Virus record (IMG/VR): IMGVR_UViG_3300017613_000725
Location: 1-49,373 of that record
Source: a virus
Strand: one strand, 5' to 3'
DNA: 49,373 nt
Shown here piece by piece: positions 14,897 through 25,655 of this stretch (position 1 is the stretch's first letter; each line of letters starts with the position of its first letter). A model generated the notes under the pieces. That model was not told where the DNA came from, searched no databases, and worked only from the letters and a program-made list of their open reading frames with translations. Made by a program: the position numbers and the translations under genes.

Positions 14897-15036
14897 GACA
14901 GCTTCTTTTGGGTTTGCTATTCTTGGCCGTAGCTCGTTACTTTACAGATTTGGAGATGGACGAGAATTACAAAATACTTGCGATGATAGGATTGGCAGGA
15001 TTTTTATATTTAACAATATATTTTATAAGAATATAA
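14893..15036 (+). CDS. 47-aa membrane protein
   Basis: GGAGAAGGAG SD; ATGA overlap; two hydrophobic segments. Preferred over track ORF 14769..15086. Confidence 0.45.
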   Translation: MRQLLLGLLFLAVARYFTDLEMDENYKILAMIGLAGFLYLTIYFIRI

Positions 15037-15037
15037 G

Positions 15038-15072
15038 TAGCCAAACCCCGATGGAATTTAGTAGTTTTGGCT
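15038..15072 (+). terminator. stem-loop, TAGCCAAA/TTTGGCTA with a 19-nt loop
   Basis: 8-bp perfect stem immediately after the stop; no strong T-tract. Confidence 0.3.
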
Positions 15073-15101
15073 ATCTACAACAATAATTTAAGGAGATAGA
15101 A

Positions 15102-15350
15102 ATGACCAGAATATTTAATGTAGAATTTGAATTTAACTTGCTGTGGGACGGTGAAGACTTGGGGCAAGAAAAGGACAATCTAAATGTTGTAGGTGATGAT
15201 GGGAGAATAGCGATAACGGAAGCCGTGAAACAACTGTTTACGCCCCACGAGGAAGAAATAGAAGATGAAGATACGGGCGATATGAAAAAAGTGAAGGTTG
15301 ATTATAATAGCATACGCCTTCTTGAAGTGAAACTTTTGGCAGAAGCATAG
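15102..15350 (+). CDS. acidic hypothetical protein
   Basis: AAGGAG SD; D/E-rich. Confidence 0.6.
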   Translation: MTRIFNVEFEFNLLWDGEDLGQEKDNLNVVGDDGRIAITEAVKQLFTPHEEEIEDEDTGDMKKVKVDYNSIRLLEVKLLAEA

Positions 15351-15420
15351 ACCCAATAAATTTATCAAATAATGAAACTACTAATAATATTATTCCCGGT
15401 TAAGAAAGGTGCGAAATACG

Positions 15421-16179
15421 ATGCCTAAAGACCCAGCATTCTTATTTTATTACCAAGATTTTTTAGTAGGCACGTCATTTTTAACAAACGAAGAAACTGG
15501 GGCATATATTAGAATATTAGCACACTTAGCCGATAAAGAGGTGTTGGACGAAGAACATATGATAAACATATGTATAACACAGAATATATGGGATTCTATT
15601 AAAAGTAAATTTGTAGTAGATAATGAAGGCAATTTTTATAATGAAAGATTAAGAGAAGAGTCTATTAAACGCAGGGAATACGCAGAAAGTAGAAGAAAAA
15701 ACAGGTTAGGGAAATCAAAATCATATGATAAACATATGGAAAATGGAAATGGAAATGAAGATAGAATTAAAGAATTAAAGAATGATAAGAATAAACACAG
15801 GGGGGAGTTTTTTGAAAATCTTTTTAATCTCTATCTGTTAGAATTTGTTAATAAACTTTCTTTAGAGACTTGGAAAGAGTGGGTAAGTTACCGGCGGGAG
15901 ATAAAAAAGAAGCTAACTAAATCTATGGCTGAAAAACAATTAAAGTTTTTAGTGCTACAAGGCGACCCCACTGGGTGTATAAACGAATCAATAAAGAATG
16001 GCTGGGCTGGCTTGTTCGAGTTAAAAAACAACCAATCAGTGAAACCGAAGATTGAGGGGACGGGCAGACGGGTGGCTTCGTATGAACAAACACAGAAGTT
16101 ATTTAGGGAAAATGAAGAAGCATTAAAAAAACAAGGCAAGTGGGACGGGGCAATAAAAACAGAAAATAAAGAAAGCTAA
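15421..16179 (+). CDS. DUF1376-like replication-associated protein
   Basis: PKDPAFLFYYQDFLVGTSFLTNEETGAYIRIL matches the DUF1376 N-terminal signature; start set at ATG 15421. Confidence 0.55.
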   Translation: MPKDPAFLFYYQDFLVGTSFLTNEETGAYIRILAHLADKEVLDEEHMINICITQNIWDSIKSKFVVDNEGNFYNERLREESIKRREYAESRRKNRLGKSKSYDKHMENGNGNEDRIKELKNDKNKHRGEFFENLFNLYLLEFVNKLSLETWKEWVSYRREIKKKLTKSMAEKQLKFLVLQGDPTGCINESIKNGWAGLFELKNNQSVKPKIEGTGRRVASYEQTQKLFRENEEALKKQGKWDGAIKTENKES

Positions 16180-16264
16180 AACATTTTAAGGAGATTAGCA
16201 GTGTGGCAAATAAACCGCACTGAAATTATGAACTTAAATAAATATTTTAATAACAAAAATGCCG

Positions 16265-16307
16265 AATCAAATAACTTGTCAGCTTTGAGTTGCTGGTTAG
16301 TTTGATT
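16265..16307 (+). repeat. junction hairpin with 3' box (copy E1)
   Basis: AATCAAATAAC...CAGC-N8-GCTG-GTTAGTTTGATT; 3' box TTGTCAGCTTTGAGTTGCTGGTTAG (16276-16300). Preceded by hairpin CAGTGTGG-caaataaa-CCGCACTG (16199-16222). Confidence 0.6.
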
Positions 16308-16325
16308 TTTGGCGGGAGAAATAAA

Positions 16326-16430
16326 ATGCTACACTTAACAGCTTTAGAATTAAATTCTTTAGGGTTCAAACAAAAGATTATAGATGGTTGGGTTAAAATA
16401 AAATCATTAATTGACGAAGCGTCCTGCTAA
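16326..16430 (+). CDS. 34-aa hypothetical protein
   Basis: GGGAGAA SD; the TAA stop forms part of the CTAACGG 5' box. Confidence 0.35.
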   Translation: MLHLTALELNSLGFKQKIIDGWVKIKSLIDEASC

Positions 16431-16551
16431 CGGTAGGGGCTTAAAGCGCAACGAGAAATCAGAGTAAATATTGAATTATGAATAACACTAAAAACATAAA
16501 AACCAAAACAAAGGAGACAACGAAAGTTGTCGACTTTGAAGCCTTTGTTAG
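16427..16551 (+). repeat. junction unit A (CTAAC...GTTAG, 125 nt)
   Basis: 5' CTAACGGTAGGGGCTTAA (16427-44); 3' box TTGTCGACTTTGAAGCCTTTGTTAG (16527-51) inside the 5' end of CDS 16478. Confidence 0.55.
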
Positions 16552-16774
16552 AATTTTTTGGGCGATAATAAACCCAGTAATTTGGAGATTAGGTAGAAAG
16601 CATAAGTGGGTGAGAGACAAATATAGAAGGATAAGAAAAGGTAAGTATTTATGGGGCATTATGGGGGCTATTGTTGATTATGAATCATCAGATAATGCCG
16701 AGTGTAAACCAGACCCAGAATTTGAAAAGTATATGAAAAGAATTTTTGAATATAAAAGCCCAAAACAATTATAA
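16478..16774 (+). CDS. hypothetical protein
   Basis: Track ORF; stop TAA embedded in TATAACGG. Confidence 0.6.
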   Translation: MNNTKNIKTKTKETTKVVDFEAFVRIFWAIINPVIWRLGRKHKWVRDKYRRIRKGKYLWGIMGAIVDYESSDNAECKPDPEFEKYMKRIFEYKSPKQL

Positions 16775-16859
16775 CGGTTGGCAAATAATGCGCAGCGAAG
16801 TAATTAAAATACCAAATCGGGAGACAGCTTTAGCTGTCGCTTTGATTTGATGGTTATAA
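16769..16859 (+). repeat. junction unit B (TTATAAC...GTTATAA, 91 nt)
   Basis: Perfect 7-bp terminal inverted repeat; inner hairpin CAAATC..GACAGC-ttta-GCTGTC..GATTTG; contains GGCAAATAA. Confidence 0.65.
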
Positions 16860-16881
16860 AATTATTAGATGGAATAATAAA

Positions 16882-17061
16882 ATGAATTGCCCAGAATGTG
16901 AAAAAGAAATGGAACAGATAGATACTACTTATTCTAATGTTAATACAGAGAGAGCGAAAAAAGAACAACACACTGGTAATATTTATAGATGCGATGACTG
17001 TGATTTACTTTGGTTAGAAAACTTATTAAATAATGGAATATTAGAAGCGTGGGCTTACTAA
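16882..17061 (+). CDS. 59-aa zinc-ribbon protein
   Basis: CPECEK...CDDCD; below the track cutoff. Confidence 0.55.
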   Translation: MNCPECEKEMEQIDTTYSNVNTERAKKEQHTGNIYRCDDCDLLWLENLLNNGILEAWAY

Positions 17062-17066
17062 TAATT

Positions 17067-17195
17067 TTATAACGGCTATCATCACTTGCCGCCGAACTTC
17101 AAAAATAAGGAAAACTAAAATGGAAAGCAAAACATCTTCCTCTAATTCAGAAGCGCAGACTGCTATAGGCGGTCAAGTGGATGAATTGGTTATAC
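17067..17195 (+). repeat. junction unit C (TTATAAC...GTTATAC, 129 nt)
   Basis: 5' TATAACGGC + CGGC-N11-GCCG hairpin; 3' box GGTCAAGTGGATGAATTGGTTATAC falls in codons 18-26 of CDS 17120. Confidence 0.55.
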
Positions 17196-17398
17196 TGCGG
17201 AAAGGAAAATGGAATGATAAATTATTAAATAAATTAATAGAAGATTGGAAAAGTTTTGGATGGAGATTAAGACTTTTAAACCAAGATCCTGGTGATGAAA
17301 ATTATCACCTTGCCAATATTGTCTTAAATCATTTAATACAGCACGAACCAGAAAAGTTTAAAGATATAAGAAAAAAACATTGTCTTACATTTAAATAA
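17120..17398 (+). CDS. hypothetical protein whose N-terminal leader is homologous to that of CDS 20330
   Basis: AAGGAA SD; MESKTSSSNSEAQTAIGGQVDELVILRKG compared with MSDKNENNNSELTEPTGEGQVELLVMLRP. Confidence 0.6.
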   Translation: MESKTSSSNSEAQTAIGGQVDELVILRKGKWNDKLLNKLIEDWKSFGWRLRLLNQDPGDENYHLANIVLNHLIQHEPEKFKDIRKKHCLTFK

Positions 17399-17404
17399 AG
17401 AGCA

Positions 17405-17462
17405 GTATAACGGCTAACATAAGCGGTGCGCTGTTTGCATCCGCTTGATGTATTTGTTATAC
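17405..17462 (+). repeat. junction unit D (GTATAAC...GTTATAC, 58 nt compound hairpin)
   Basis: Outer 7-bp stem; inner ACATAAGCGG / CCGCTT(g)ATGT stem around a 14-nt loop. Confidence 0.7.
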
Positions 17463-17483
17463 ACCGAAACGAAAGGATTGGAC

Positions 17484-17720
17484 ATGAAGCCATTAGACTT
17501 TATAAGAGTCAAAGAAACTGGTAGTATAGGTATGATAACAGAAGTTTCAACAACACAAGGGATTTATTCTGCATCCGTTGAATTTCTAAATTGTTTTACA
17601 GGAGAAAAAACTGCTTGGTGGAATGATGATGAATTTGAAATTATTGATAACTTACCAGATTTATTGGCAAGAGAATTAAAACATCCATTTGGAAATGATT
17701 CTTTACAACCATTCAAATAG
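17484..17720 (+). CDS. hypothetical protein
   Basis: Start moved to the ATG after AAAGGA; the track TTG start lies inside unit D. Confidence 0.55.
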   Translation: MKPLDFIRVKETGSIGMITEVSTTQGIYSASVEFLNCFTGEKTAWWNDDEFEIIDNLPDLLARELKHPFGNDSLQPFK

Positions 17721-17722
17721 GT

Positions 17723-17843
17723 GTATAACGGCAGGGGCTTAACCGGTTGTGAAAATAGAAAGGGATAAAATGATAATAACAATTAAAGACGAATTACCAG
17801 AAGATGAAATTAAACGTATTGAACAGGTTGAACTTAGTTATAT
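17723..17843 (+). repeat. junction unit E (GTATAAC...GTTATAT, 121 nt)
   Basis: 5' GTATAACGGCAGGGGCTTAAC, a 21-nt sequence identical to 19912-19932; 3' box CAGGTTGAACTTAGTTATAT inside the 5' end of the methyltransferase CDS. Confidence 0.55.
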
Positions 17844-18564
17844 GTACGGTGGAGAAAAAATGGGAGTTACTTATAATAATTTCAATATTAACAGTCCGGT
17901 TGAAGCCTTGGTTAGTTTGCCATACTATGAAGAAGATGGGATAACTATATACAACGCAGATTGCCGAATAATGATGCAAGCATTACGCCCAAGTTGGATT
18001 ATTACCGATCCGCCTTATGGAATAAACTATGATGGCTCTGGATATAAAAAGTGGAGTGGGCAGAAACAGACTTGGGATAAAATTAAGAACGATGATGGAT
18101 GTTATGATTTAGAATTTCTATTTAAGGCGGAAGGGAATAAGGTGGTTTTTGGGGCGGACAATTTTATAAACTTTATAACAAGTAAAGGAAGTTGGATAAT
18201 TTGGGATAAACGGGTTAATGATAAAAACGATAAAATGTTTGGCAATCCGATTGAAATGGCTTGGAATAGTTTGGAGGGATTACACAAGATTTATAGGATA
18301 CAGCACGGCGGAGTAGTTAACGCTGATTCGATTTATGGGAATAATGAAAAAAGAGTACACCCGACACAAAAACCAGTGAGGCTATTTTATAAAGTTATTG
18401 AAGATTTTACAGAGCAGAATGATTTTATACTTGACCCGTTTATGGGAAGTGGAACGACTTTAATAGCCGCACGTAAACTTGGGCGTAAGGCAACGGGAAT
18501 TGAAATTAATAAAAAATATTGTGATATAGCAATAAGACGATTAAGCCAAATGGAAATGTTTTGA
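17770..18564 (+). CDS. DNA methyltransferase, N6_N4_Mtase family (DPPY type, probably m6A)
   Basis: ITDPPYG (motif IV), HPTQKP, DPFMGSGTT (motif I) in beta-class order. Confidence 0.9.
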   Translation: MIITIKDELPEDEIKRIEQVELSYMYGGEKMGVTYNNFNINSPVEALVSLPYYEEDGITIYNADCRIMMQALRPSWIITDPPYGINYDGSGYKKWSGQKQTWDKIKNDDGCYDLEFLFKAEGNKVVFGADNFINFITSKGSWIIWDKRVNDKNDKMFGNPIEMAWNSLEGLHKIYRIQHGGVVNADSIYGNNEKRVHPTQKPVRLFYKVIEDFTEQNDFILDPFMGSGTTLIAARKLGRKATGIEINKKYCDIAIRRLSQMEMF

Positions 18565-18576
18565 GAATAGGACAAA

Positions 18577-18630
18577 CTAACAATAAGCTCACCTGCATCG
18601 CCTTGCGATGTCTGGTGGAGCGATAGTTAG
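18577..18630 (+). repeat. junction unit J (CTAAC...GTTAG, 54-nt compound hairpin)
   Basis: CTAAC/GTTAG, CTCACC/GGTG(G)AG and CATCGC-ctt-GCGATG nested stems. Confidence 0.65.
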
Positions 18631-18652
18631 AAACTATTTTAAGGAGTAAATA

Positions 18653-18877
18653 ATGACAGGGAAAGAAATGTTAAAAATGTGGCTCATTGGGAATGCGGGG
18701 ATAGAGCTTACCGAAGGGCTGATTGAAACCAAAGTCTATCAAGACCAGTGGAAATTCGGGCTTCATTATGAACCAGGTACTCTTTCTCGTTATTTCAGAG
18801 ATGTTAGAGATAATTTAGGGAAGTTCACTTGTAGGGAAGTTGAAAACCGAAAATATAAAACCTGGATTGTGGTGTGA
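18653..18877 (+). CDS. hypothetical protein
   Basis: AAGGAG SD. Confidence 0.6.
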   Translation: MTGKEMLKMWLIGNAGIELTEGLIETKVYQDQWKFGLHYEPGTLSRYFRDVRDNLGKFTCREVENRKYKTWIVV

Positions 18878-19266
18878 AAGAGAAAACTCACAAACAACTC
18901 ATTAAGGACTTAGATGCGATTTACTCAAAGTACATTCGCAAGCAAGCCGTTTACAATAGTGAGGGATTGGCTAAGTGTTACACCTGCGATCAAGTCAAGA
19001 GCTGGAAGTCAATGGATTGCGGGCATTATGTTTCCAGGAGGATTTTATCAACGAGATTTTTCGAGAAGAATACAAAAATTCAGTGTAAAAAATGTAATGT
19101 TTTCAGTGAAGGCAATAAACCACGCTTTGCTATTGAACTCCAGAAAGAATACGGCAAGGGGGTGCTTGAAGAACTTGATAGCTTATCCCGAATATTGGTT
19201 AAGTATGATAGAAACAAATTACAAAATATGATATTTTACTATAAAAAGAAGTTTGAGGCAATATGA
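18874..19266 (+). CDS. NinG-like recombination-associated protein
   Basis: CYTCDQ...CGHYVSRR...RFFEKNTKIQCKKCNVFSEGN resembles the lambda NinG family pattern; GTG start overlaps the upstream stop. Confidence 0.5.
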   Translation: MKEKTHKQLIKDLDAIYSKYIRKQAVYNSEGLAKCYTCDQVKSWKSMDCGHYVSRRILSTRFFEKNTKIQCKKCNVFSEGNKPRFAIELQKEYGKGVLEELDSLSRILVKYDRNKLQNMIFYYKKKFEAI

Positions 19267-19508
19267 AAACAGCAGATTTAGATTACTATAAAAATGTAGC
19301 GGAGACTCAACAATGTATTTCAGTATTGATACCGGAATTGCTTGATTTGATTGATGATGTAGAAGCTGAGCGCAAGGAATTGCTTGGTTTGATTGATAAG
19401 ATGATAGAAGAAGCTAAACCATATTTAAGAACAGGCAGAAAATTAGAAGCACAAATCCAGATAAATGTACTAACCGAACTTAAAAAGGAGATAAAAAATG
19501 TGGAATAA
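19263..19508 (+). CDS. hypothetical coiled-coil protein
   Basis: ATGA overlap with the upstream gene. Confidence 0.6.
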   Translation: MKTADLDYYKNVAETQQCISVLIPELLDLIDDVEAERKELLGLIDKMIEEAKPYLRTGRKLEAQIQINVLTELKKEIKNVE

Positions 19509-19590
19509 CGCTAAAATAAAAAAATTGACCATACTTATTGCTGTTTTTGTAGTCTGTGTAATTTTAACAGTTATATTTTGGATATTGTAA
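19498..19590 (+). CDS. 30-aa single-TM peptide
   Basis: AAGGAG SD; LTILIAVFVVCVILTVIFWIL. Confidence 0.35.
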   Translation: MWNNAKIKKLTILIAVFVVCVILTVIFWIL

Positions 19591-19620
19591 AAGATTATTA
19601 CAGAGTTAATAAAACCGACA

Positions 19621-19917
19621 ATGCACGAAATAATAAATATAAGATGTGAGTTTTGTGGTAAACCAAGACAGAGCGATGGCTACCACGGTTTGATGGTTTG
19701 TTGTAAAAATCCTAAATTGACCGAAGCTGCAAGCGAGGTCAATGTTGATTTGCTGGTTAGACCTAAAATTGCGGAATGGATTGATAATAAAATAAGAAAA
19801 AATTTAGAATTTGAAGTATATGCCAGATTAGATGAACGTGATTGGGGAAGATTTAGAGGGAAGCAGGAATTATTGGATGAACTTAAAGAGATGATTGAAA
19901 GCAATTTTACGGTATAA
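19621..19917 (+). CDS. hypothetical protein, paralogue of 19961..20278
   Basis: Shares LTEAASEVNVD at the same offset from the start; stop TAA lies inside TATAACGG. Confidence 0.6.
   Translation: MHEIINIRCEFCGKPRQSDGYHGLMVCCKNPKLTEAASEVNVDLLVRPKIAEWIDNKIRKNLEFEVYARLDERDWGRFRGKQELLDELKEMIESNFTV
19716..19775 (+). repeat. R1: intragenic repeat with hairpin TTGACC-N14-GGTCAA and 3' box
   Basis: 35 nt (19716-19750) identical to 20056-20090; similarity continues for about 60 nt. Confidence 0.9.
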
Positions 19918-19938
19918 CGGCAGGGGCTTAACTTGCCG
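19912..19938 (+). repeat. 5' box GTATAACGGCAGGGGCTTAAC with CGGCA/TGCCG hairpin
   Basis: 21-nt exact copy of 17723-17743. Confidence 0.85.
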
Positions 19939-19960
19939 AGCATAAACATAGGAGATTAGA

Positions 19961-20278
19961 ATGGATATAGAAAAAATAAGAGAAGAATTTTATAATGATT
20001 TTGGTGATTTGAAAGGTTTTAGTAAAAGCATTATGTGGAATTGGATAAAAACCAGATTGACCGAAGCTGCAAGCGAGGTCAATGTTGATTCGCAAGTTAG
20101 CCCTAAAATTGTGGACTTTGGACATTCTGATTTACCAAAAGAAGAACGTAATAGAATTATTCTACTTGCTATTGATAATACCATTAACCCCAAAAGAAAG
20201 ATAACCTTTGAACAAGCAGATTGGTTACGGTTTATATCTGTATTAAGAAAAGAAGGCTGGAAAATTGTGAAGTGTTAG
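19961..20278 (+). CDS. hypothetical protein, paralogue of 19621..19917
   Basis: GGAG SD; conserved LTEAASEVNVD segment. Confidence 0.6.
   Translation: MDIEKIREEFYNDFGDLKGFSKSIMWNWIKTRLTEAASEVNVDSQVSPKIVDFGHSDLPKEERNRIILLAIDNTINPKRKITFEQADWLRFISVLRKEGWKIVKC
20056..20115 (+). repeat. R2: second copy of the intragenic repeat
   Basis: Exactly 340 bp from R1; both copies begin 95 nt after their own ATG. Confidence 0.9.
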
Positions 20279-20284
20279 CAATTA

Positions 20285-20316
20285 AACCTAACGGTTAGGC
20301 AAATAACCTGCCTACC
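20285..20316 (+). repeat. junction element ACCTAAC-G-GTTAGGC plus hairpin with GGCAAATAA loop
   Basis: CCTAAC/GTTAGG palindrome; GGT(T)AGGCA-aataacc-TGCCTACC stem. Confidence 0.6.
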
Positions 20317-20329
20317 AAAATAAGAAGAT

Positions 20330-21142
20330 ATGTCTGATAAAAATGAAAATAATAATTCAGAACTGACCGAGCCAACAGGCGAAGGTCAGGTTGAGTTGCT
20401 TGTTATGTTGCGCCCGCTTCTTTACAAAATACACAATGAAGATTGTAGAGAAACTTTAGCAAAGCTACCGGCAGAGAGTATTGATTTAATAGTAACAAGC
20501 CCGCCTTATAATAAAAAGAGTGTGAACAGGAAATGTGGGAAAACTGATAGCTGGATGAAGGCGAATATAAATTATGGAACTTATAATGATGATTTACCAG
20601 AGAATGAATACCAAGAATGGCAAAAGAAAGTATTGAGGGAAATGGTGCGGGTGATAAAGCCCGAAGGAAGTATTTTTTATAACCATAAAGTTAGGATAAT
20701 AAACCACAGAGCAATAATACCAACAGAGTGGTTAAATGAATTTAATATACGGCAAGTTTTGATTTGGGATAGGGGTAATTCGCCACAGATAGCACCTATC
20801 CGATGGCTACCAACGACAGAATATATTTACTGGATTACAAAAACAAATACACAGCCTAAATTTTATAAACGTTCAAAGCATTTAGCGGAAGTATTGAGAA
20901 TATCTGCGAAACCCACAAATGACCATCCCGCACCGTTCCCTGAAGAATTGGTAGAAACGTTAATATTAAACACAACAGATGGAAGCGATGTAGTCTATGA
21001 CCCATTTAGTGGAAGTGGGACAGCCTGTAGAGTCGCAGACAGATTGGGGCGGGCTTGGTTTGGGAGTGAAATATCAGAGAGGTATTGCTCGGTAGCTTTG
21101 CGGAATATAAAAAGTGATTTATTTACTAAGGCGACAACATAA
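20330..21142 (+). CDS. DNA methyltransferase, N6_N4_Mtase family (SPPY type, possibly m4C); alternative start 20405
   Basis: VTSPPYN, HPAPFPEEL, DPFSGSGT. The 25-codon N-terminal extension consists of the repeat element. Confidence 0.9.
   Translation: MSDKNENNNSELTEPTGEGQVELLVMLRPLLYKIHNEDCRETLAKLPAESIDLIVTSPPYNKKSVNRKCGKTDSWMKANINYGTYNDDLPENEYQEWQKKVLREMVRVIKPEGSIFYNHKVRIINHRAIIPTEWLNEFNIRQVLIWDRGNSPQIAPIRWLPTTEYIYWITKTNTQPKFYKRSKHLAEVLRISAKPTNDHPAPFPEELVETLILNTTDGSDVVYDPFSGSGTACRVADRLGRAWFGSEISERYCSVALRNIKSDLFTKATT
20353..20407 (+). repeat. M2: repeat element inside the 5' end of the methyltransferase ORF
   Basis: TAATTCAGAA + CTGACC-N15-GGTCAG + TTGAGTTGCTTGTTATG. The stem differs from R1/R2 by a compensatory T:A to C:G change. 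Confidence 0.7.
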
Positions 21143-21213
21143 CGTACAAGCTAAACTGCAACGAAGCGAAAATCGAGGACACAGTAAGTTGTCAGATTTG
21201 AGCGGTTGGTTAG
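21137..21213 (+). repeat. junction unit H (ACATAAC...GTTAG)
   Basis: Stop TAA lies in the ATAACG box; hairpin AAATC..GACA-N8-TGTC..GATTT; 3' box GAGCGGTTGGTTAG. Confidence 0.55.
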
Positions 21214-21227
21214 AAAGGAGATTAACA

Positions 21228-21590
21228 ATGACTAAGAAAGAAGAGATAAATGGTAAGCTAAACAGTATTTTGTTTTCCGCCTATATCACAGGTAAAGAAA
21301 ATGGGGATAACAGAACCTTTCACAAATGGGAGGAAGAAAACCAAGTATGCAAACTATTTCTTAAAGAGGTTGGACAATACGGTAGAGATGAAAGGGTGGA
21401 TGAGTTGGATAAGATAGCAGAAGATTGTCCTAATTGTCCGAATCAAGGATGGTATGAAGTAACTGGCACATATATAAATCCCAATAATGGTGAACCAGAA
21501 CCGCAACAAGAACAAGAACAATGCCAATTTTGTTATGAACAGAAAAATTCACGTTTTAATATTGAAAACAGAATAAAAGAATTAGAATGA
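21228..21590 (+). CDS. Cys-rich hypothetical protein
   Basis: Start at the ATG after AAAGGAG; CPNCPN...CQFC. Confidence 0.6.
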   Translation: MTKKEEINGKLNSILFSAYITGKENGDNRTFHKWEEENQVCKLFLKEVGQYGRDERVDELDKIAEDCPNCPNQGWYEVTGTYINPNNGEPEPQQEQEQCQFCYEQKNSRFNIENRIKELE

Positions 21591-21706
21591 TAATGATAAT
21601 AGCAATTAGCATATTCACAGCGATAGGTATTTGCACTTGTGTGTTGTTATTCTTTGGTGCTGTTGGTGAAATTGAATCAAAAGACTTAGAAAGGAAACAT
21701 AAATGA
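21587..21706 (+). CDS. 39-aa membrane peptide
   Basis: ATGA overlaps at both ends; IMIIAISIFTAIGICTCVLLFFGAV. Confidence 0.4.
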   Translation: MIMIIAISIFTAIGICTCVLLFFGAVGEIESKDLERKHK

Positions 21707-21801
21707 GCATAAGAAAAATGGAAACTGAATTTGCTGTCATTTTTACGATTATCTGTTTAAGTGGATTGTTAGGACTGCTAATGTTCTTTGGTGTATTATG
21801 A
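21703..21801 (+). CDS. 32-aa membrane peptide
   Basis: ATGA overlaps at both ends; FAVIFTIICLSGLLGLLMFFGVL. Confidence 0.4.
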   Translation: MSIRKMETEFAVIFTIICLSGLLGLLMFFGVL

Positions 21802-22055
21802 AAACTTACCCTAAAATTGACACATATAGAGGGGAAGCGTGGACGGATGTTGTTACGAGATGGGGGGATATATTCGGCTGTAAAATTGAATTTGCTGTTA
21901 AGTGCTGCCCTGGTTGCGGAGAGAGTTGGCAGCCGATAGGAACGAGAAACAAAGGACACAAAAAGTATGATAAATTTGGGAAGGGCTGGGGTTTTGGCTT
22001 GGGGTTAAGAAAGGAGGTTTGTCCTGAGTGTGAAGAAAAAAGAAGCGAAATATAA
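21798..22055 (+). CDS. zinc-ribbon protein
   Basis: CCPGCG...CPECE. Confidence 0.55.
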   Translation: MKTYPKIDTYRGEAWTDVVTRWGDIFGCKIEFAVKCCPGCGESWQPIGTRNKGHKKYDKFGKGWGFGLGLRKEVCPECEEKRSEI

Positions 22056-22209
22056 AACAGGTACGATTTACACAATAACTGCAAAACGTTACGTTGACGG
22101 CAAAGACAAGGTTATGATCCGAGACATCAAGGGCGAAGATATCCAGAACTTCATAAAAGAGAAATTACAAAGAGCCAGACTTTTTTGGGTACACGAGAAA
22201 GATGGGTAA
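22030..22209 (+). CDS. 59-aa hypothetical protein (GTG start)
   Basis: GAAAGGAGG upstream; last rightward ORF before the convergent terminator. Confidence 0.35.
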   Translation: MKKKEAKYKTGTIYTITAKRYVDGKDKVMIRDIKGEDIQNFIKEKLQRARLFWVHEKDG

Positions 22210-22240
22210 CTTACACGCATACCCTTTTAACGAGCATAGA

Positions 22241-22265
22241 GGGGTGCTGACAGCACGAACACCCC
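22241..22265. terminator. hairpin at the convergent gene boundary
   Basis: GGGGTG...CACCCC with alternative inner GTGCTG-a-CAGCAC pairing, between the + stop at 22209 and the - stop at 22266. Confidence 0.4.
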
Positions 22266-22457
22266 CTACCCCCACTTGGCAGCTCTTAAATTTAACAGAT
22301 TTTTCAAAGTCGCAAAATTAAGATTGCCCGATTCAGTAACGATTGACACCCCATTATAGAGCTTATCTGCCTTTTCACACGCTTCTTTAGGCGTTTTAGC
22401 TTCTTGAGGTGCTTTAATACACCCTGTTTTAGTTATAGTATGGACTGTGTATATCAT
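22266..22457 (-). CDS. hypothetical protein
   Basis: Track ORF at the distal end of the leftward operon. Confidence 0.55.
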   Translation of the reverse strand: MIYTVHTITKTGCIKAPQEAKTPKEACEKADKLYNGVSIVTESGNLNFATLKNLLNLRAAKWG

Positions 22458-22465
22458 TTCTTCAC

Positions 22466-22630
22466 CTAATTTTTATTTATATGTTTAGACTCTTCTGCCC
22501 AATCCTTATGCGTGTAGTATTCGTGAGTAGATTCCATATTCTCTTTCGCTTTTTCAACAGCTACCCTCGCGACCCAGCCGACTAAGAAACCGGCAAAAGC
22601 CACACCTGCTAATATTATAATCAGTTCCAT
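22466..22630 (-). CDS. 54-aa N-terminally anchored membrane protein
   Basis: GGAG SD; MELIIILAGVAFAGFLVGWV; below the track cutoff. Confidence 0.45.
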   Translation of the reverse strand: MELIIILAGVAFAGFLVGWVARVAVEKAKENMESTHEYYTHKDWAEESKHINKN

Positions 22631-22631
22631 T

Positions 22632-22883
22632 TTATTCTCCTTTCGTTTTGTTGATGGTTTCTCTTAATCTTCTCATTGTAAAGCTATCTTCTTCATCTTC
22701 TCTCTTCCAGCTTTCTAATTGGTCTAACGCTTCCTCACACGCTTCTAACAGATCAGCGTTGATGCTTTCAAGCTCTTCAATATATTCTTGAGGTTCTTCA
22801 TACCTTTTATGGTGGTATTCTTGTGCTTCTAATGAATGGAAGCTTTTGGCGCAACTATTTCTGCCACAAATTTTACAACTCAT
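22632..22883 (-). CDS. highly acidic small protein with an N-terminal Cys cluster
   Basis: About one third D/E; CKICGRNSC. Confidence 0.6.
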   Translation of the reverse strand: MSCKICGRNSCAKSFHSLEAQEYHHKRYEEPQEYIEELESINADLLEACEEALDQLESWKREDEEDSFTMRRLRETINKTKGE

Positions 22884-22947
22884 CTCTTCCTCCTATATAA
22901 AATAGTTAATAAAAATATAAAATAAGGTATATCGAATTTAAGATGTT

Positions 22948-23241
22948 TCATTCATTCACATCTATTGTAAAGTGACCGTTATCTGAATTATCCCCATCCA
23001 TTTCGTCTTTACCAAGATAATAATTACTATCGACACTATCTAAACCTTTGGTTAATTCTCTGATGAAATCAACCATTATAGTCTCTGGCTCAAGTCTGCT
23101 AAGTGGTGTGCTATAGGATTGTTTTATCCCCCCAAGATGTCTTTTAGCGTCTTTTACTAAGTCATAGCCGTCCCAGTGGCTAAATAAAACAACGCTTTCA
23201 TCCAGGTTGTTTTTGAAGCTGATTGATATTCGATTTCCCAT
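22948..23241 (-). CDS. hypothetical protein
   Basis: Track ORF in operon context. Confidence 0.6.
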   Translation of the reverse strand: MGNRISISFKNNLDESVVLFSHWDGYDLVKDAKRHLGGIKQSYSTPLSRLEPETIMVDFIRELTKGLDSVDSNYYLGKDEMDGDNSDNGHFTIDVNE

Positions 23242-23265
23242 TTTGTTACCTCTTTAGTTAGTTGT

Positions 23266-23553
23266 TTACTTATCAATTATTACTTTTCTTTTGCCATCTT
23301 CCCAAAAAACCGCACACGCCTTTATATCTTTTGGCTTTGGTTTATAGTCTCTAATTATTTTTGATATCTCAAGTTTTTGTAAAATCTTTTCGGCTTCTGC
23401 ACGACCTAAAAAGTAATAGGTAGTTATTTCCTTTAGTCCCTTCTTCCGCCACTTTTTATCTTTGTGGTGGTAAATTTCTCCCTTTTCGTTTACTATATAA
23501 TAATAAGTGAAACAGGGCTTAAAGCCAGCTTGATTGTTTCTAATTGAAAACAC
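23266..23553 (-). CDS. hypothetical protein
   Basis: Track ORF in operon context. Confidence 0.6.
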   Translation of the reverse strand: MFSIRNNQAGFKPCFTYYYIVNEKGEIYHHKDKKWRKKGLKEITTYYFLGRAEAEKILQKLEISKIIRDYKPKPKDIKACAVFWEDGKRKVIIDK

Positions 23554-23588
23554 TTCACACCTCTTTTAGTTGTTAAAGAAAAATTGTT

Positions 23589-24026
23589 TTAATTCCATTT
23601 AGCGTTTTCATATTCCGGTAAATTGTTTATGATTTTGGAAGTGATTTGCTCAATCAGCCGATCTAAGTCCTGTACCCTGCTATCCTGTTCTAATATTTCC
23701 CCTTCTATTTGGTATCTTAGGCACTCAAGACTTTTTAACAGTTGATAAATGTTTGTTGGCTTACCCTTGTTGAAGTCGATTATATTGGTCTCAAGCGGTT
23801 CATTTTCGTTGTACCGTTCATTCCAGGAAATTATGTTTATTTCATAAAGCTTTTTTAACAAGCTTCTTATCCGGTTTGTATCGTTCCCGTTTTCATCAGG
23901 GAAGAAATAGCCATATTCTAAATAAGAATAAAGCATATTTTTGCTACCGTTTGTAAAATAATCGCCAGACTCTAAAGTTCTGCAAATATTCTCAATGGTT
24001 TTTGGCTCAATTATAAAAACACTCAT
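23589..24026 (-). CDS. hypothetical protein (145 aa)
   Basis: Track ORF; ATGA-type overlap with the next gene. Confidence 0.6.
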   Translation of the reverse strand: MSVFIIEPKTIENICRTLESGDYFTNGSKNMLYSYLEYGYFFPDENGNDTNRIRSLLKKLYEINIISWNERYNENEPLETNIIDFNKGKPTNIYQLLKSLECLRYQIEGEILEQDSRVQDLDRLIEQITSKIINNLPEYENAKWN

Positions 24027-24241
24027 TTTATTACCCCCCTGTCCCAGAACGGATCATACGCAAAAGGAATTTCAAAGTACATCCCCTCGCCTTCGATTTG
24101 TGAATGAAATTTAGTAACATTGTTTTTATATTTATAGCCATTTATTATTTTTTGGCTTTCTGGTGTTACTTTTACATACAGGTCTGATTCGTGGTTACTC
24201 AAATCAAAACCAGCTTTTTTTAATTGTTCGTAAATAGTCAT
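24023..24241 (-). CDS. hypothetical protein
   Basis: Start moved to the ATG after AAGGAG. Confidence 0.55.
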   Translation of the reverse strand: MTIYEQLKKAGFDLSNHESDLYVKVTPESQKIINGYKYKNNVTKFHSQIEGEGMYFEIPFAYDPFWDRGVIK

Positions 24242-24242
24242 A

Positions 24243-24419
24243 TTATTCTCCTTCACATTCTATATATTGCTCCATATCGTGATAAGCAGTTCGGCAATAT
24301 ATTACGCTGTTTAGAGATTCGGCATTATAGCCGTTTATTTTAGTAATCAAAATCAGTTCCTCTTTTGTTGCGAACCCCATTTCGATTATCCAATCCCAAA
24401 TTTCGTCTAAGTTTTCCAT
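24243..24419 (-). CDS. 58-aa hypothetical protein
   Basis: GGAGAAAAGGAA upstream; tiles between neighbours; below the track cutoff. Confidence 0.45.
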   Translation of the reverse strand: MENLDEIWDWIIEMGFATKEELILITKINGYNAESLNSVIYCRTAYHDMEQYIECEGE

Positions 24420-24547
24420 TTCCTTTTCTCCTTTATTATTAAAAAATTATATCTTATAAGCCCAATAAATAAGCAGTCCAGCCAGAACAAAAAGGGCTGG
24501 AATAATAATTGTGAGTAACATAATGCACCCTTATATTTAATGAATGG

Positions 24548-24817
24548 TTAATGGTTTTCAATTTCGTTTATTCTGTTTCTTGTATAATTAAGATAATATG
24601 AAAAATAATCCTCTAATTCATAAAGTGCGTCAATTTCTGTTAAAAAAACAACATCAGTTCCGAAAGTTAAATGTCTTCTGTCTTTTTGCACATCTAAAAG
24701 AGGGAAAAATTCATCTTCTCTTTTTTCTTCGAGCTTTATTACTTTGCGAATTGTATCTATATTGAGCCAATAATAACACATTCCGCTTTTCATATTTTTG
24801 ACCCTAATCGTTTTCAT
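24548..24817 (-). CDS. hypothetical protein
   Basis: Start moved to MKTIRV, adjacent to the upstream stop. Confidence 0.55.
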   Translation of the reverse strand: MKTIRVKNMKSGMCYYWLNIDTIRKVIKLEEKREDEFFPLLDVQKDRRHLTFGTDVVFLTEIDALYELEDYFSYYLNYTRNRINEIENH

Positions 24818-24818
24818 T

Positions 24819-24995
24819 TTATACCTTTTCGTGATAATCAAAGGTGAGTAGTAAGAAATAAGCCAAATTTCCGTAAGTTGTATTTAGCTTAAACGATGCC
24901 TTTTCCCAAGCTACCGGCAAGTTGTTGCAGACAACACTAAATTGATTTATTATAGTATTGTCACCGTTGCGAACATTGAAAAAATACCGTTTCAT
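24819..24995 (-). CDS. 58-aa hypothetical protein
   Basis: Leader TTATTTAATAGGCAGTAAAATG is paralogous to that of 25022..25165. Confidence 0.4.
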   Translation of the reverse strand: MKRYFFNVRNGDNTIINQFSVVCNNLPVAWEKASFKLNTTYGNLAYFLLLTFDYHEKV

Positions 24996-25021
24996 TTTAC
25001 TGCCTATTAAATAATGAATAA

Positions 25022-25165
25022 TTAATGAAGTTTTTTAAGTCTAATTAAATCTGCGGTTATGCGAGCTTTAAGAAAAATTCTTTCTAATTTCTTTCTGTTT
25101 TTCTTTCTCCAAAGTCTTTCTTCTGCTAAATCTCTTTGTTTTTGTAAATTATATGCGTTTTTCAT
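25022..25165 (-). CDS. 47-aa basic protein
   Basis: Leader TTATTTAATAGGTGATAAAATG; first gene of the leftward operon. Confidence 0.4.
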   Translation of the reverse strand: MKNAYNLQKQRDLAEERLWRKKNRKKLERIFLKARITADLIRLKKLH

Positions 25166-25370
25166 TTTATCACCTATTAAATAATAATTTATAAAAGTAT
25201 TACAAGCTTAATGCCAAAGCATAAAACAGCGAAAACAGAACGGAAACAAAGTATAAAAACCGTGCCAGAGATTGGCAGGTAAATGTTACTAAAAAAACTT
25301 ACCGATATGAGTAAAATTAACCGAAATAAAAGGGAGCAAAAAGAAAAACGAAAAAAAAGACGCTTGAGGG

Positions 25371-25401
25371 TTGACTCTTAAATTTATTATGCTTATGTTT
25401 G
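25371..25401 (+). promoter_or_regulatory. promoter candidate, TTGACT-N17-TATGTT(TG)
   Basis: TTGACT at 25371-76 and TATGTT at 25394-99. TATGTTTG also fits the Bacteroidota -7 motif TAnnTTTG. Confidence 0.35.
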
Positions 25402-25597
25402 CAACCGTAAATAAAAAGGTATCTTGATCTACTCAGACTTAAAAGAAATATCTAAAATCGATAGTTTCGCATTTCTGCAACGCAACCAGCGAATTGATGA
25501 GCAATTTCCAGAGCTGCCACTTTTTACAATCACGCATCCCTCCAAAACAACTAAGCAAGATAAATTAAAAATAGATAGAATAATTAAAGAATTTTGT

Positions 25598-25632: not shown

Positions 25633-25655
25633 GAATGTTCTTTTAAATAATGGTT

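Follow-up and report, generated by a model that had tools for sequence, protein, structure and literature searches.

PeSLs (promoter-early stem-loops) of T4-type phages are intergenic elements in which a terminator-like stem-loop is joined to a sigma-70 (or Mot) promoter close to consensus (Arbiol et al., 2010, PMC2839356; Comeau et al., 2014, PMC4122927). In cluster K mycobacteriophages, a conserved 13-bp sequence termed SAS lies immediately upstream of translation starts, and the ESAS is formed by 17-bp imperfect inverted repeats with a 4-13 bp spacer, follows a genome-wide consensus and is also placed upstream of the start (Pope et al., 2011, PMC3203893). Phage accessory regions hold many small and fast-evolving genes, and there is little understanding of what organises the expression and shuffling of these genes. 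At the RNA level, RNase III processes intercistronic hairpins of phage early transcripts, as in the T7 R-sites, SP82 and the lambda N leader, and long-range pairing couples neighbouring cistrons in the MS2 coat-replicase “Min Jou” interaction and in the E. coli IF3-L35-L20 operon.

Here we describe a family of foldable units in the accessory region of an uncultivated phage, with their anatomy, the unit-specific complementarity of their arms, their independence of reading frame and the exchange of modules among relatives. The window, that is the whole stretch of DNA analysed, is IMG/VR record IMGVR_UViG_3300017613_000725 (49,373 nt), a 49.3-kb circular phage genome. The phage is not T4-like, and its terminase is at most 25% identical to that of any known phage. 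The units lie in a co-directional gene string, within a lambda nin-like accessory region that follows an O-like replication gene and contains NinG; a PDDEXK exonuclease and an HNH endonuclease are also encoded by the phage. On balance, we favor the reading that each unit is a structured RNA element on a polycistronic transcript, which also marks the boundaries of module exchange.

A 35-nt Repeat in Two Adjacent ORFs

The original prediction concerned a 35-nt perfect repeat embedded in two adjacent ORFs and related to a copy in a neighboring methyltransferase gene. The features involved are as follows.

19621-19917, + strand: ORF1, contains R1
19961-20278, + strand: ORF2, contains R2
19717-19742, + strand: R1 inner hairpin TTGACC-gaagctgcaagcga-GGTCAA, inside ORF1, identical to the R2 hairpin
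20057-20082, + strand: R2 inner hairpin, inside ORF2
20363-20389, + strand: hairpin of the methyltransferase 2 copy, CTGACC-N15-GGTCAG

A sequence search confirmed that ATTGACCGAAGCTGCAAGCGAGGTCAATGTTGATT occurs exactly twice, as R1 (19716-19750) and R2 (20056-20090), both on the + strand, with a spacing of 340 nt and each 95 nt after its own ATG (19621 and 19961), so that both copies are read in the same frame and encode LTEAASEVNVD. Dinucleotide-preserving shuffles (n = 100) gave no match to it even with three mismatches allowed, and the region is 100% identical in L002, another assembly of this phage, thus the repeat is not an assembly artefact. Similarity beyond the core was also correctly predicted, but it reaches slightly further than the claimed 60 nt or so: 75 nt are alike at 85% identity (19701-19775 vs. 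20041-20115). If the 11 mismatches were placed at random in these 75 nt, a perfect run of at least 35 nt would arise with P = 0.0057, indicating that the 35-nt core is really better preserved than its flanks.

The two ORFs had been taken as diverged paralogues, and this part of the prediction has to be given up, as outside the common element of about 75 nt their identity falls to background. BLASTP aligns only residues 3-52 of ORF1 and ORF2, driven by the repeat, and at offset 340 DNA identity amounts to 0.34 for the N-terminal and 0.27 for the C-terminal part, as against 0.28 ± 0.05 and 0.29 ± 0.03, respectively, at other offsets. The 12 codon differences between R1 and R2 are all non-synonymous, with no synonymous change. 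The in-frame fusion geometry does hold: recombination between R1 and R2 is computed to yield a 105-aa in-frame fusion, with gtttgttgtaaaaatcctaaATTGACCGAAGCTGCAAGCGAGGTCAATGTTGATTcgcaagttagccctaaaatt as the predicted junction of the 340-bp deletion and tggaattggataaaaaccagATTGACC...GTTGATTtgctggttagacctaaaatt as that of the duplication or circle, and relatives show N-terminal modules exchanged at the element (see below). The 340-bp deletion variant was absent from L002, the one other assembly examined. Structure alone leaves the perfect identity of the 35 nt unexplained, as it includes the loop and third codon positions; most likely it represents a recent copy or a gene-conversion tract between the two neighbors.

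Both hairpins were found as predicted, TTGACC-N14-GGTCAA in R1 and R2 and CTGACC-N15-GGTCAG in the methyltransferase copy with its compensatory T:A to C:G change. The small inner stem holds one more compensatory pair (GCT/AGC to GCC/GGC), and elsewhere in the family GACAAC/GTTGTC is replaced by GACAGC/GCTGTC in a hand register of the copies, although the lineages behind such covariation are few, with only two relatives carrying units. RNAalifold on a MAFFT alignment of hairpin plus arm was uninformative because the 5′ strands were misaligned by differing loop lengths, and the hand register and alignment-free comparison of cognate and non-cognate energies were used instead. While the 26-nt hairpin is kept, it turned out to be minor in comparison with a long-range pairing of two arms, which is the main structure: the partner arm sits 100-200 nt away, where the preceding gene ends in its stop codon, and the 3′ part of the 35-nt repeat pairs with it.

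A Family of Units at Gene Boundaries

Nucleotide similarity across the copies was rightly noticed, but the scope of two or three copies was too narrow. The family comprises at least 11-12 related units, all on the + strand, which occupy almost every gene boundary between 16.2 and 21.2 kb. Scanning with a position weight matrix (PWM) built on the 3′ motif yielded 10 sites with scores of 17.5-27.1 against a shuffle maximum of 16.9, spread over 16284-21197 and confined to the + strand; the site at 17899 lay outside the training set and was found de novo. A narrow eleventh unit is located at 18577-18630. The individual units and arms are listed below.

16276-16307, + strand: copy A, a 3′-type arm (PWM 22.8; terminator-like flag; read in another frame by the 34-codon ORF 16202-16306)
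16426-16552, + strand: unit I (5′ arm 16426-16452, ATG 16478, hairpin GACAACgaaaGTTGTC 16516-16531, 3′ arm 16527-16552)
16768-16860, + strand: unit B, narrow and intercistronic (5′ arm 16768-16797, hairpin GACAGCtttaGCTGTC 16823-16838, 3′ arm 16833-16860)
17067-17195, + strand: unit C (5′ arm 17067-17093, ATG 17120, hairpin 17158-17174, 3′ arm 17169-17195)
17405-17462, + strand: unit D, narrow, a continuous 58-nt hairpin GTATAACGG...TTGTTATAC (z = -3.7)
17719-17922, + strand: unit J, before methyltransferase 1 (5′ arm 17719-17751, ATG 17770, 3′ arm 17891-17922)
18577-18630, + strand: unit K, narrow, a hairpin closed by CTAAC...GTTAG (z = -3.8)
19736-19773, + strand: R1 3′-type arm, an orphan that lacks a cognate 5′ arm upstream
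19900-19941, + strand: 5′-type arm F (AGCAATTTTACGGTATAACGGCAGGGGCTTAACTTGCCGAGC), contains the ORF1 stop TAA 19915-19917
20081-20113, + strand: R2 3′ arm (..GTTGATTCGCAAGTTAGCCCTAAAATTG), pairs with 19921-19941 and 19901-19909
20287-20414, + strand: unit G, before methyltransferase 2 (5′ arm 20287-20314, CCTAACGGTTAGGCAAATAACCTGCCTA; hairpin 20363-20389; 3′ arm 20382-20414)
21178-21215, + strand: unit H, weak and non-coding, hairpin GACAcagtaagtTGTC plus 3′ motif TTTGAGCGGTTGGTTAGAA

The 5′ arm (consensus gTATAACGGcaGGGGCTTAAC) starts at the upstream stop codon or at most about 11 nt after it, and the 3′ arm, GTTgAnnnnnTGGTTAkA, is its imperfect reverse complement, usually abutted by a small hairpin (GAC...GTC). 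The arms are 20-28 nt long and enclose unrelated interiors of 0 to about 170 nt; most copies other than R1 and R2 are about 60-80% alike. Conservation is highest in the terminal motifs, (Y)TAAC on the 5′ side and GTTA(R) on the 3′ side, and a bulged G recurs in the 3′ arm. TAACG is found at or just after stops at 16428, 16772, 17070, 17408, 17726, 19506, 19915, 20289 and 21140, and in five of these positions its TAA is the stop codon itself, as in the 5′ arm of unit I. An extended Shine-Dalgarno (SD) block, GGAGATTA, occurs seven times against 2.2 expected, five of them within 16190-21224, and lies directly at starts in only three of the seven (16190, 19951, and 21217).

Two forms can be distinguished. 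Narrow units (B, D, K, H) consist of a single intercistronic hairpin that ends just before the next SD. Unit B (folding z = -3.9) lies upstream of the ATG at 16882, unit D between the stop at 17398 and the ATG at 17484, and unit K, which none of 200 shuffles equaled in stability, between the methyltransferase 1 stop at 18564 and the ATG at 18653. Unit H (PWM 20.9) ends at the SD of the ATG at 21229, and its cognate pairing is weak (-13.5 kcal/mol). In the wide units (I, C, J, R2, G and the units of the relatives L001 and L012), the loop holds the SD, the ATG and the first 19-43 codons; the 3′ arm is then translated, always in one frame, which results in the look-alike peptide V-[DE]-x-[LF]-V. 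The 3′ arm of unit J is the de novo site, scoring 17.5, and its cognate duplex (-27.9 kcal/mol) is the best in its own row and column of the energy matrix. Unit G (folding z = -3.4) has the ATG at 20330 in its loop, and the conserved start of methyltransferase 2, ATG 20405, falls at the end of its arm; homologues of this enzyme start around M26 without the 25-residue extension, indicating that the methyltransferase 2 leader is an add-on.

Copy A pairs weakly upstream, and its stronger partner is the downstream 5′ arm 16420-16455 (-25.6 kcal/mol). The R1 arm has the worst upstream cognate energy in the matrix (-8.9 kcal/mol) and pairs with the downstream arm at 19900-19922 (-28.2 kcal/mol with 19900-19938); keeping it unpaired costs 12.8 kcal/mol. 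Arm F pairs through its left part with R1 and through its right part with R2, or folds into a local hairpin, CGGCAggggcttaactTGCCG. The right part of F pairs with R2 at -22.4 kcal/mol as against -11.8 with R1, a pairing created by five R2-specific substitutions, all of which change the amino acid. The resulting long-range helix of R2 encloses the SD, the ATG and the first 40 codons of ORF2.

Pairing of Cognate Arms

With pre-defined arms, cognate pairs reach a mean of -23.0 kcal/mol and non-cognate pairs -15.7 kcal/mol, and none of 200,000 permutations attained the observed cognate sum. For the wide units alone, the cognate assignment ranks first of 720, and the effect is gone when the 3′ arm is reversed (-15.0 kcal/mol). 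The closing helix also appears in MFE folds computed without constraint, both for units B, C, D, J, and R2 and for the whole 19700-20120 stretch. The predicted arm duplexes comprise 21-28 pairs in I, B, C, D, J, R2, G, and L001, 20 in A and 15 in H.

Thermodynamic support for the units is modest. In a generic scan, a 28-nt arm finds partners of -24 to -28 kcal/mol within 200 nt even in shuffled sequence, so that raw duplex energies are not significant alone and were dropped as evidence. With fixed windows, the junctions of the region have a mean z of -1.3, compared with -0.4 at other genome junctions, a marginal difference (P = 0.07). The + strand duplex is the more stable one in 9 of 10 units, an asymmetry that could come from the G+T-rich + strand. 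In the predicted folds of the wide units, the SD and ATG are unpaired in an A-rich loop, which makes control of initiation by the helix less easily explained.

Nucleotide or Peptide Constraint

PWM scores are as high for copies A, B, D, and H as for the coding copies, although these four lie outside coding sequence or in another frame; it is thus the nucleotide sequence, not the peptide, that is common to the family, and the predicted conservation at the nucleic-acid level overlapping the ORFs is borne out. In the comparison with L001, six of nine arm codons differ non-synonymously as against 8 of 56 in the ORF2 C-module (Fisher P = 0.002), so the arm codons of ORF2 are far less constrained than the adjacent C-module. 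For unit C and its homologue in L012, leader plus arm show five synonymous and six non-synonymous changes, and some peptide-level constraint may act in this leader, judging from the five synonymous substitutions. As to whether peptide or nucleic-acid motif is conserved, the answer is therefore the nucleotides, with room for some constraint on the peptide in unit C. The peptide similarity among the copies is largely a by-product.

We consider it improbable that a constraint at the protein level explains the family, namely a leader or linker peptide (..TE..GQV[DE]xLV..), for example a targeting or processing signal, together with gene conversion between ORF1 and ORF2. It would account for the common frame of all six in-ORF copies, for the likeness of the leaders of I, C, G, and L012, which have a polar N-terminus followed by GGQV[DE]xLV, and for QTAxGGQV being kept through the five synonymous changes mentioned above. 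However, copies A, B, D, H, and K match the motif equally well outside this frame or outside coding sequence, the differences between R1 and R2 are exclusively non-synonymous, the arm codons are less constrained than the C-module, there is no match to a Pfam family, and a peptide signal would need no complementary motif at the upstream stop codon.

Relatives and Module Exchange

The relatives that carry units came only from a NinG scan and a search with the ORF2 protein. Exact and degenerate motif searches in IMG/VR returned nothing related (L003 and L004 were chance matches), and protein-guided searches of IMG/VR, JGI metagenomes and GTDB genomes with ORF1, ORF2, an ORF2 plus P0002 alignment, methyltransferase 2 and the terminase gave no syntenic relative. 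The element was not found in L005-L010, among which the contigs with methyltransferase 2 homologues (L007-L009) are unrelated phages.

In L001, the ORF2 C-module follows an unrelated leader, and homology ends inside the element at about 20084; its arms are entirely different (CACTTTACCTGCCAC / GTGGACAGGTAGAAGTG) and still pair at -27.9 kcal/mol. In L012, the leader of unit C is attached to a different gene, and its arms pair at -25.1 kcal/mol with changes relative to the homologous unit C. In L011, NinG is joined directly to the homologue of gene 21798 without the block of ORF1, ORF2, and methyltransferase 2. Different leader cassettes are thus found on the same gene, and the same cassette on different genes.

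Known Elements Searched for in the Region

Rfam gave no match at the gathering threshold in the whole window and, in permissive mode, only two chance-level matches in 16000-21600 (E = 0.45 and 1.1). Inspection and this result also led to the rejection of a hammerhead-like motif (CUGAnGA...GAAA) and of a K-turn at the tandem G.A internal loop. Promoter-like sites in 15000-22600 number 26 against 27.1 expected, and none recurs at unit positions; a sigma-70 promoter reading (TTGAnn/TATAAC) was also discarded, in view of the wrong spacing, a -10 box without the final T and the chance-level scan. Terminator-like sites in the region likewise stay at chance (4 vs. 3.9 expected), and among the units A and B alone count as such. 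Pfam and PHROG scans of the larger ORFs detected no tyrosine or serine recombinase and no transposase, and none is evident among the small ORFs of the 49-kb genome. Replication iterons do not fit copies that lie about 300 nt apart with one per gene, nor does a MITE or Correia-like transposon fit unrelated unit interiors and the lack of a detected transposase.

Comparison with Described Systems

The units resemble PeSLs in being short composite stem-loop motifs at the boundaries of small accessory ORFs in a plastic region, tied to gene gain, loss and swapping between close relatives (here L001, L011, and L012). As for intergenic stem-loops, B, D, and K are strong intergenic hairpins, and five units overlap ORFs. 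Unlike PeSLs, the units have no promoter consensus, possess two complementary arms up to about 200 nt apart that covary unit by unit, and often hold the start of the next gene inside the structure. With SAS and ESAS they share a single orientation, an association with a subset of translation starts, imperfect inverted repeats with a variable spacer, and a presumed role in translation or expression; an extended SD block also recurs in the phage, as given above. They differ from ESAS in their 20-28 nt arms that co-vary per unit, spacers of 0 to about 170 nt, a 5′ arm tied to the upstream stop and a start codon inside the loop in five units.

RNase III sites are similar in their imperfect helices, about 20-28 bp long and interrupted by internal loops and bulges, in having sequence features in common and in lying between the cistrons of a co-directional string, and as folded in silico the narrow units B, D, and K appear just like them. 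Imperfect duplexes of at least 20 bp are predicted for the arms of the well-paired units, and the units are co-oriented with the genes and start at stops. In the wide units, by contrast, the helix surrounds the ribosome-binding site (RBS) and N-terminal codons, so that cleavage of both strands would split the downstream ORF, and these units are closer to rRNA processing stalks than to T7 R-sites. The Min Jou and IF3-L35-L20 interactions offer another parallel, as sequence in one cistron pairs near the next start and ribosome traffic remodels the initiation region, in the phage by way of a stop codon in or beside the 5′ arm; the SD or start is sequestered in the known cases, whereas the phage units have an A-rich unpaired loop and form a series of about a dozen devices. 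Integron attC sites are alike in being imperfect palindromes of variable length with AAC...GTT ends and bulges, set at cassette boundaries near stops. They differ in that no integrase was detected in the phage, the consensus is matched in part, and gene starts lie within the palindrome: TAAC/GTTA closes nearly all units, the full 7-mer is present in only some (GCTTAAC, ACCTAAC, GTTAGAC; by inspection), and the wide units exceed the attC range of 57-141 nt.

RNA Element, Cassette or DNA Linker?

In the reading that we favor, the units would act on the polycistronic RNA, which may fold either as two local hairpins or as the 21-28-bp long-range helix. A ribosome terminating on the upstream cistron would melt the 5′ arm, since the stop codon is located within or beside it, and the fold could thereby couple translation of that cistron to initiation of the next one, to RNase III-type cleavage or to stability. 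R1 would be an orphan 3′ half sharing the 5′ arm 19900-19941 with R2, and as a side effect the units, being dispersed direct repeats, may serve as breakpoints for swapping leader cassettes and genes. That RNA is the active form, with every functional consequence, we infer. A further, more tentative possibility is that the wide units are portable translation-start cassettes, structured RNAs carrying an RBS, a start codon and a leader peptide. Such modules, bounded by co-varying inverted arms, would be placed in frame before unrelated genes and exchanged; candidates are the two DNA methyltransferases (whose homologues are leaderless), a third methyltransferase type in a relative and several ORFans.

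It is rather unlikely, in our view, that the units are DNA-level recombination linkers in the manner of PeSLs, with the 35-nt identity as a recent conversion or duplication tract and RNA folding incidental. This would agree with the copies being direct repeats of a single strand, with the variable gene content of the region among relatives, with the gap in L011, the leader break of L001 at about 20084 and the L012 leader on another gene, with the phage's own PDDEXK exonuclease, NinG and HNH endonuclease, and with the non-randomly long perfect core. But linkers need identity between units rather than complementarity within a unit, and they do not predict cognate-specific pairing, the compensatory changes of R2 or stop codons in the 5′ arm; copies beyond R1 and R2, at about 60-80%, are a poor substrate for homologous exchange, L002 holds no deletion variant and a PeSL-like sigma-70 component is missing. 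Terminators or attenuators of a nin-like region under antitermination, with the alternative folds as terminator and antiterminator, seem quite improbable: the location is analogous to the lambda nin region (after the replication gene and with NinG), A and B are terminator-like hairpins with T-rich tails, and local and long-range folds do alternate, whereas only 2 of about 12 units have such a tail, the number of sites is at chance, the wide units span 130-200 nt including translated sequence, and neither an N- or Q-like protein nor a nut-like conserved box was identified. We give very little credence to attC-like folded single-stranded DNA sites that a site-specific recombinase would use to move cassettes, even though structure is conserved over sequence, the (Y)TAAC and GTTA(R) ends and the bulged G recur, narrow units measure 54-93 nt and start at stops, and relatives show cassette-like plasticity; no recombinase or transposase was found, full RYYYAAC/GTTRRRY is seen in few units, attC sites do not have gene starts within their palindromes, and homology with L001 is lost where the 3′ arm begins rather than at GTT.

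Implications

The accessory region of this phage is regularly organised: ahead of almost every gene stands a foldable unit of one kind, tied to the preceding stop codon and in half of the cases wrapping the RBS and first codons of the next gene. If the units act as RNA, they would constitute a serial, translation-coupled device of control or processing, and here coding sequence would be shaped mainly by RNA pairing, with look-alike peptides as a by-product. Should they instead work as DNA, modular shuffling of the PeSL type would extend beyond T4-like phages. Under either reading there is a warning for annotation, as the N-terminal extensions of the methyltransferases and the “paralogy” of ORF1 and ORF2 stem from a nucleic-acid element. 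If the wide units are indeed portable cassettes, newly acquired accessory genes would receive a uniform, ribosome-coupled expression switch, and the family would represent a new class of phage element for gene expression and modular evolution, beyond an intergenic repeat.

The repeat and the ORFs that carry it

Two exact copies of the 35-mer ATTGACCGAAGCTGCAAGCGAGGTCAATGTTGATT are present in the window, both on the + strand, at 19716-19750 (R1) and 20056-20090 (R2), and shuffled sequence gave no match even with three mismatches permitted; the repeat is real and non-random. As originally described, the copies are spaced 340 nt apart, each lies 95 nt past the ATG of its ORF, and both encode LTEAASEVNVD in the same frame. 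The originally described hairpin TTGACC-N14-GGTCAA and its counterpart CTGACC-N15-GGTCAG in the related methyltransferase copy (20363-20389) were likewise confirmed, and a further compensatory change (GCT/AGC to GCC/GGC) was found in the small inner stem. A second assembly of the same phage is 100% identical to the window across 9961-30278, which rules out an assembly artefact as the source of the repeat; this one other assembly showed no form with the 340-bp deletion. R1 and R2 resemble each other over 75 nt at 85% identity (19701-19775 in R1), and since a perfect run of 35 among 75 nt with 11 mismatches is improbable (P = 0.0057), the core has been kept better than its flanks.

ORFs containing the repeat
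19621-19917, + strand, ORF1, 98 aa
19961-20278, + strand, ORF2, 105 aa

The two ORFs had been described as paralogous, which was not upheld: the BLASTP alignment is confined to the surroundings of the repeat, and outside 19701-19775 DNA identity at offset 340 is the same as at arbitrary offsets. All 12 codon differences between R1 and R2 alter the amino acid. Homologues of ORF1 were not found among 5.8 billion proteins. The C-terminal module of ORF2, judged by codon comparison, is a real gene: with its one relative, P0002 on Logan contig L001, it shares 27 codons unchanged, while 21 differ synonymously and 8 non-synonymously. In P0002 the first 45 residues are unrelated to ORF2, and the homology weakens across the 3′ part of the repeat, with none upstream of ~20084.

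A family of motifs at gene boundaries

The 3′ part of the repeat, GTCAATGTTGATTTGCTGGTTAG, is found again at 16278 and 21191, and a position weight matrix (PWM) of this 3′ motif picked out ten sites with scores of 17.5-27.1, where shuffled sequence reached at most 16.9. The ten are all on the + strand, from 16284 to 21197, and include site J, which was not part of the training set.

PWM sites of the 3′ motif, named by unit
16284, + strand, A
16535, + strand, I
16841, + strand, B
17177, + strand, C
17444, + strand, D
17899, + strand, J
19744, + strand, R1
20084, + strand, R2
20390, + strand, G
21197, + strand, H

Six copies lie within ORFs, all in the frame giving V-[DE]-x-[LF]-V; B, D and H fall in non-coding sequence, and copy A is in a different frame inside a 34-codon ORF. 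A small hairpin adjoins most copies, its GAC...GTC invariant and its inner pairs co-varying. Another motif, (TA)TAACGG(c/t)aGGGGCTTAAC, is found at the stop codons of upstream genes or at most 11 nt past them, its TAA being the stop codon itself in five cases; stop-linked TAACG sites are essentially limited to 16.4-21.1 kb.

The short ORFs through copies A and B (16202-16306, 34 codons, with a strong Shine-Dalgarno sequence; 16791-16853, 20 codons) end shortly before the next gene's start and could be leader peptides or translational-coupling ORFs. In addition, GGAGATTA occurs 7 times against 2.2 expected (16190, 16584, 17262, 19951 and 21217, also 1971 and 31471); three of these copies are an extended Shine-Dalgarno block, GGAGATTAnnA(A/G)TG, right at the gene starts 16202, 19961 and 21229, like the "start-associated sequences" of mycobacteriophage.

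An exact 77-nt terminal direct repeat (1-77 = 49297-49373) shows that the contig closes into a circle of 49,296 bp, which is apparently the whole genome of the phage. On sequence evidence the phage is tailed and very distant from all known phages: terminase identity to these is ≤25%, and blastn of the window gave 0 matches. No tRNA genes were found in the window. The repeat lies within a co-directional row of small genes, 3′ of an O-like replication gene (15409-16179), and since this row includes NinG and two N6_N4 methyltransferases, it resembles the lambda nin region. Elsewhere, a PAPS-reductase-domain protein (9535-10173), an HNH endonuclease (11212-12270) and a two-domain glycosyltransferase amid structural genes (37425-38870) are unusual accessory content at this genome size. 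A separate 36-nt direct repeat (24990-25025 and 25160-25195; copies 170 nt apart with 81% identity) sits where the genome is richest in A+T (GC 0.31), close to the point at which a minus-strand gene block (22266-25898) gives way to + strand genes; the repeat could belong to an operator, a promoter or an origin.

Pairing between the arms

The 3′ motif is an imperfect reverse complement of the post-stop motif, and the closing helix between these arms was recovered by unconstrained MFE folds in units B, C, D, J and R2. Narrow units are single intercistronic hairpins, whereas in the wide units (I, C, J, R2, G) the loop holds an A-rich Shine-Dalgarno region, the ATG and 19-43 codons.

Narrow units, each with TAAC/GTTA closure
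17405-17462, unit D, single intercistronic hairpin
site at 16841, unit B, single intercistronic hairpin
18577-18630, unit K, single intercistronic hairpin, z = -3.8

Single-helix energies prove nothing, because in a generic scan a 28-nt arm found, no more than 200 nt away, partners pairing at -24 to -28 kcal/mol, even in shuffled sequence. The key test compared cognate with non-cognate pairing in pre-defined windows, one of 49 nt that opens 4 nt ahead of the upstream stop and one of 34 nt that surrounds the PWM match: cognate arms averaged -23.0 against -15.7 kcal/mol for non-cognate ones, and the observed sum was reached in 0 of 200,000 permutations (0 of 20,000 in an earlier test with orphan copies included). 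Among wide units only, the cognate assignment ranked 1 of 720, and the effect was gone when the 3′ arm was reversed. Independent support comes from two relatives, since the arms still pair despite changed sequence: at -27.9 in L001, where they differ greatly, and at -25.1 in the L012 unit homologous to C, which keeps the CTTGCCGCC/GGCGGnCAAG core with altered flanks. Beyond the window, units are carried by these two lineages only. For H and A, pairing with the upstream partner is weak. In fixed 152-nt windows, which truncate the J and R2 3′ arms, junctions in the region showed only marginally more structure than junctions elsewhere (mean z -1.3 vs -0.4, P = 0.07). The + strand duplex was favoured in 9 of 10 cases, but the + strand is G+T-rich.

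Wide units form two classes by the distance separating the in-loop ATG and the 3′ arm, 57-65 nt (I, C, G, L012) and 117-129 nt (R1, R2, J, L001); the equal 95-nt offsets of R1 and R2 fall in the latter class, yet their leader sequences are unrelated. Inside coding sequence of the relatives L011 (1-50) and L040 (783-832) lies GGTTTAAGCGCAACGA, close to the unit I 5′ arm GGGGCTTAAAGCGCAACGAG (16434-16453), which may be a relic or displaced arm. In L001 (385-520), 3′ of the ORF2 homologue, two TAACGG motifs stand at and just past the stop (cgcTAACGGtttttctgcaTAACGG), and after them comes a lipoprotein gene in which the DNA for the signal peptide, TTGTCGTTTTGATTGGCTTGTTGG, is similar to the 3′ motif; these may be chance or a diverged unit.

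R1, without an upstream partner, gave the worst value of the matrix (-8.9), and its arm pairs downstream with 19900-19922, at the end of ORF1, while the R2 arm pairs with the neighbouring segment 19921-19941. The flank common to both copies, CCTAAAATTG, is complementary to CAATTTTACGG at 19902-19912, and the MFE fold of 19700-20120 (-82.2 kcal/mol) holds the R1 and R2 helices adjacent in one fold. The five substitutions by which R2 differs from R1, all non-synonymous, strengthen pairing with the 5′ arm that belongs to R2, giving -22.4 kcal/mol in place of -11.8. As copy A also pairs with the next 5′ arm downstream (-25.6), arms would alternate along the transcript, some having a choice of neighbouring partner. 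For several units, the 5′ arm can fold into a local hairpin (e.g., CGGCAggggcttaactTGCCG) or pair instead with the 3′ strand of the inner hairpin, so two alternative folds are predicted.

RNA, DNA or peptide?

The best-supported reading is that a family of structured units would act on polycistronic RNA. Three features favour it: the stop codon lies within or beside the 5′ arm, compensatory changes are specific to each unit, and the reading frame makes no difference. None of the three would be predicted if the element were a recombination site in DNA or a peptide motif. The nucleotide motif is equally strong in coding and in non-coding or out-of-frame copies, and against L001 6 of 9 arm codons are non-synonymous, while in the C-module next to them 8 of 56 are (Fisher P = 0.002). 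The 25-residue extension bearing the motif in the methyltransferase behind unit G is an add-on, since homologues (2577 matches) begin within a few residues of M26 (ATG 20405). A leader peptide nevertheless has evidence on its side: unit C and its L012 homologue retain QTAxGGQV across five synonymous changes, so that short leaders may be under some peptide-level constraint. Both N6_N4 DNA methyltransferases (20330-21142, 17749-18564) have unit-containing N-terminal extensions, the latter with a possible start, TTG 17917, directly past its arm; the starts as annotated could mislead, or the genes could give rise to two isoforms.

DNA-level PeSL-like linkers, leader peptides, terminators or attenuators, and attC-like sites were weighed, and none is a family under which the element can be filed. 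The grounds are the lack of a sigma-70 promoter part for PeSLs, a geometry that does not fit ESAS, no recombinase found in the genome for attC-like sites, and no match to any Rfam family; searches of the phage genome also found no phage RNA polymerase, integrase or transposase. On the RNA reading, the units would form a ribosome-dependent switch between local and long-range folds, could allow RNase III-type processing or stabilisation at the 21-28-bp imperfect helices, and might modulate downstream initiation.

Module exchange and wider meaning

The leader cassette before the ORF2 C-module differs between the window and L001. The leader of unit C stands before an ORFan in the window and, in L012, before a DPPY-type methyltransferase, and in L011 NinG is followed directly by a homologue of gene 21798, without the block of ORF1, ORF2 and the second methyltransferase. 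The region is thus plastic, and exchange boundaries coincide with the units. Since these are dispersed direct repeats and the phage has an exonuclease and NinG of its own, they probably also serve as recombination breakpoints, which would account for the recent-looking 35-nt identity of neighbours R1 and R2.

The original prediction of a functional nucleic-acid element overlapping the ORFs was thus correct though understated, there being a family of units and not two copies. The element belongs to a known kind, the repeated structured elements at phage gene boundaries; what is unusual here is that genes start inside co-varying long-range stems, and that leader cassettes are common to unrelated genes.
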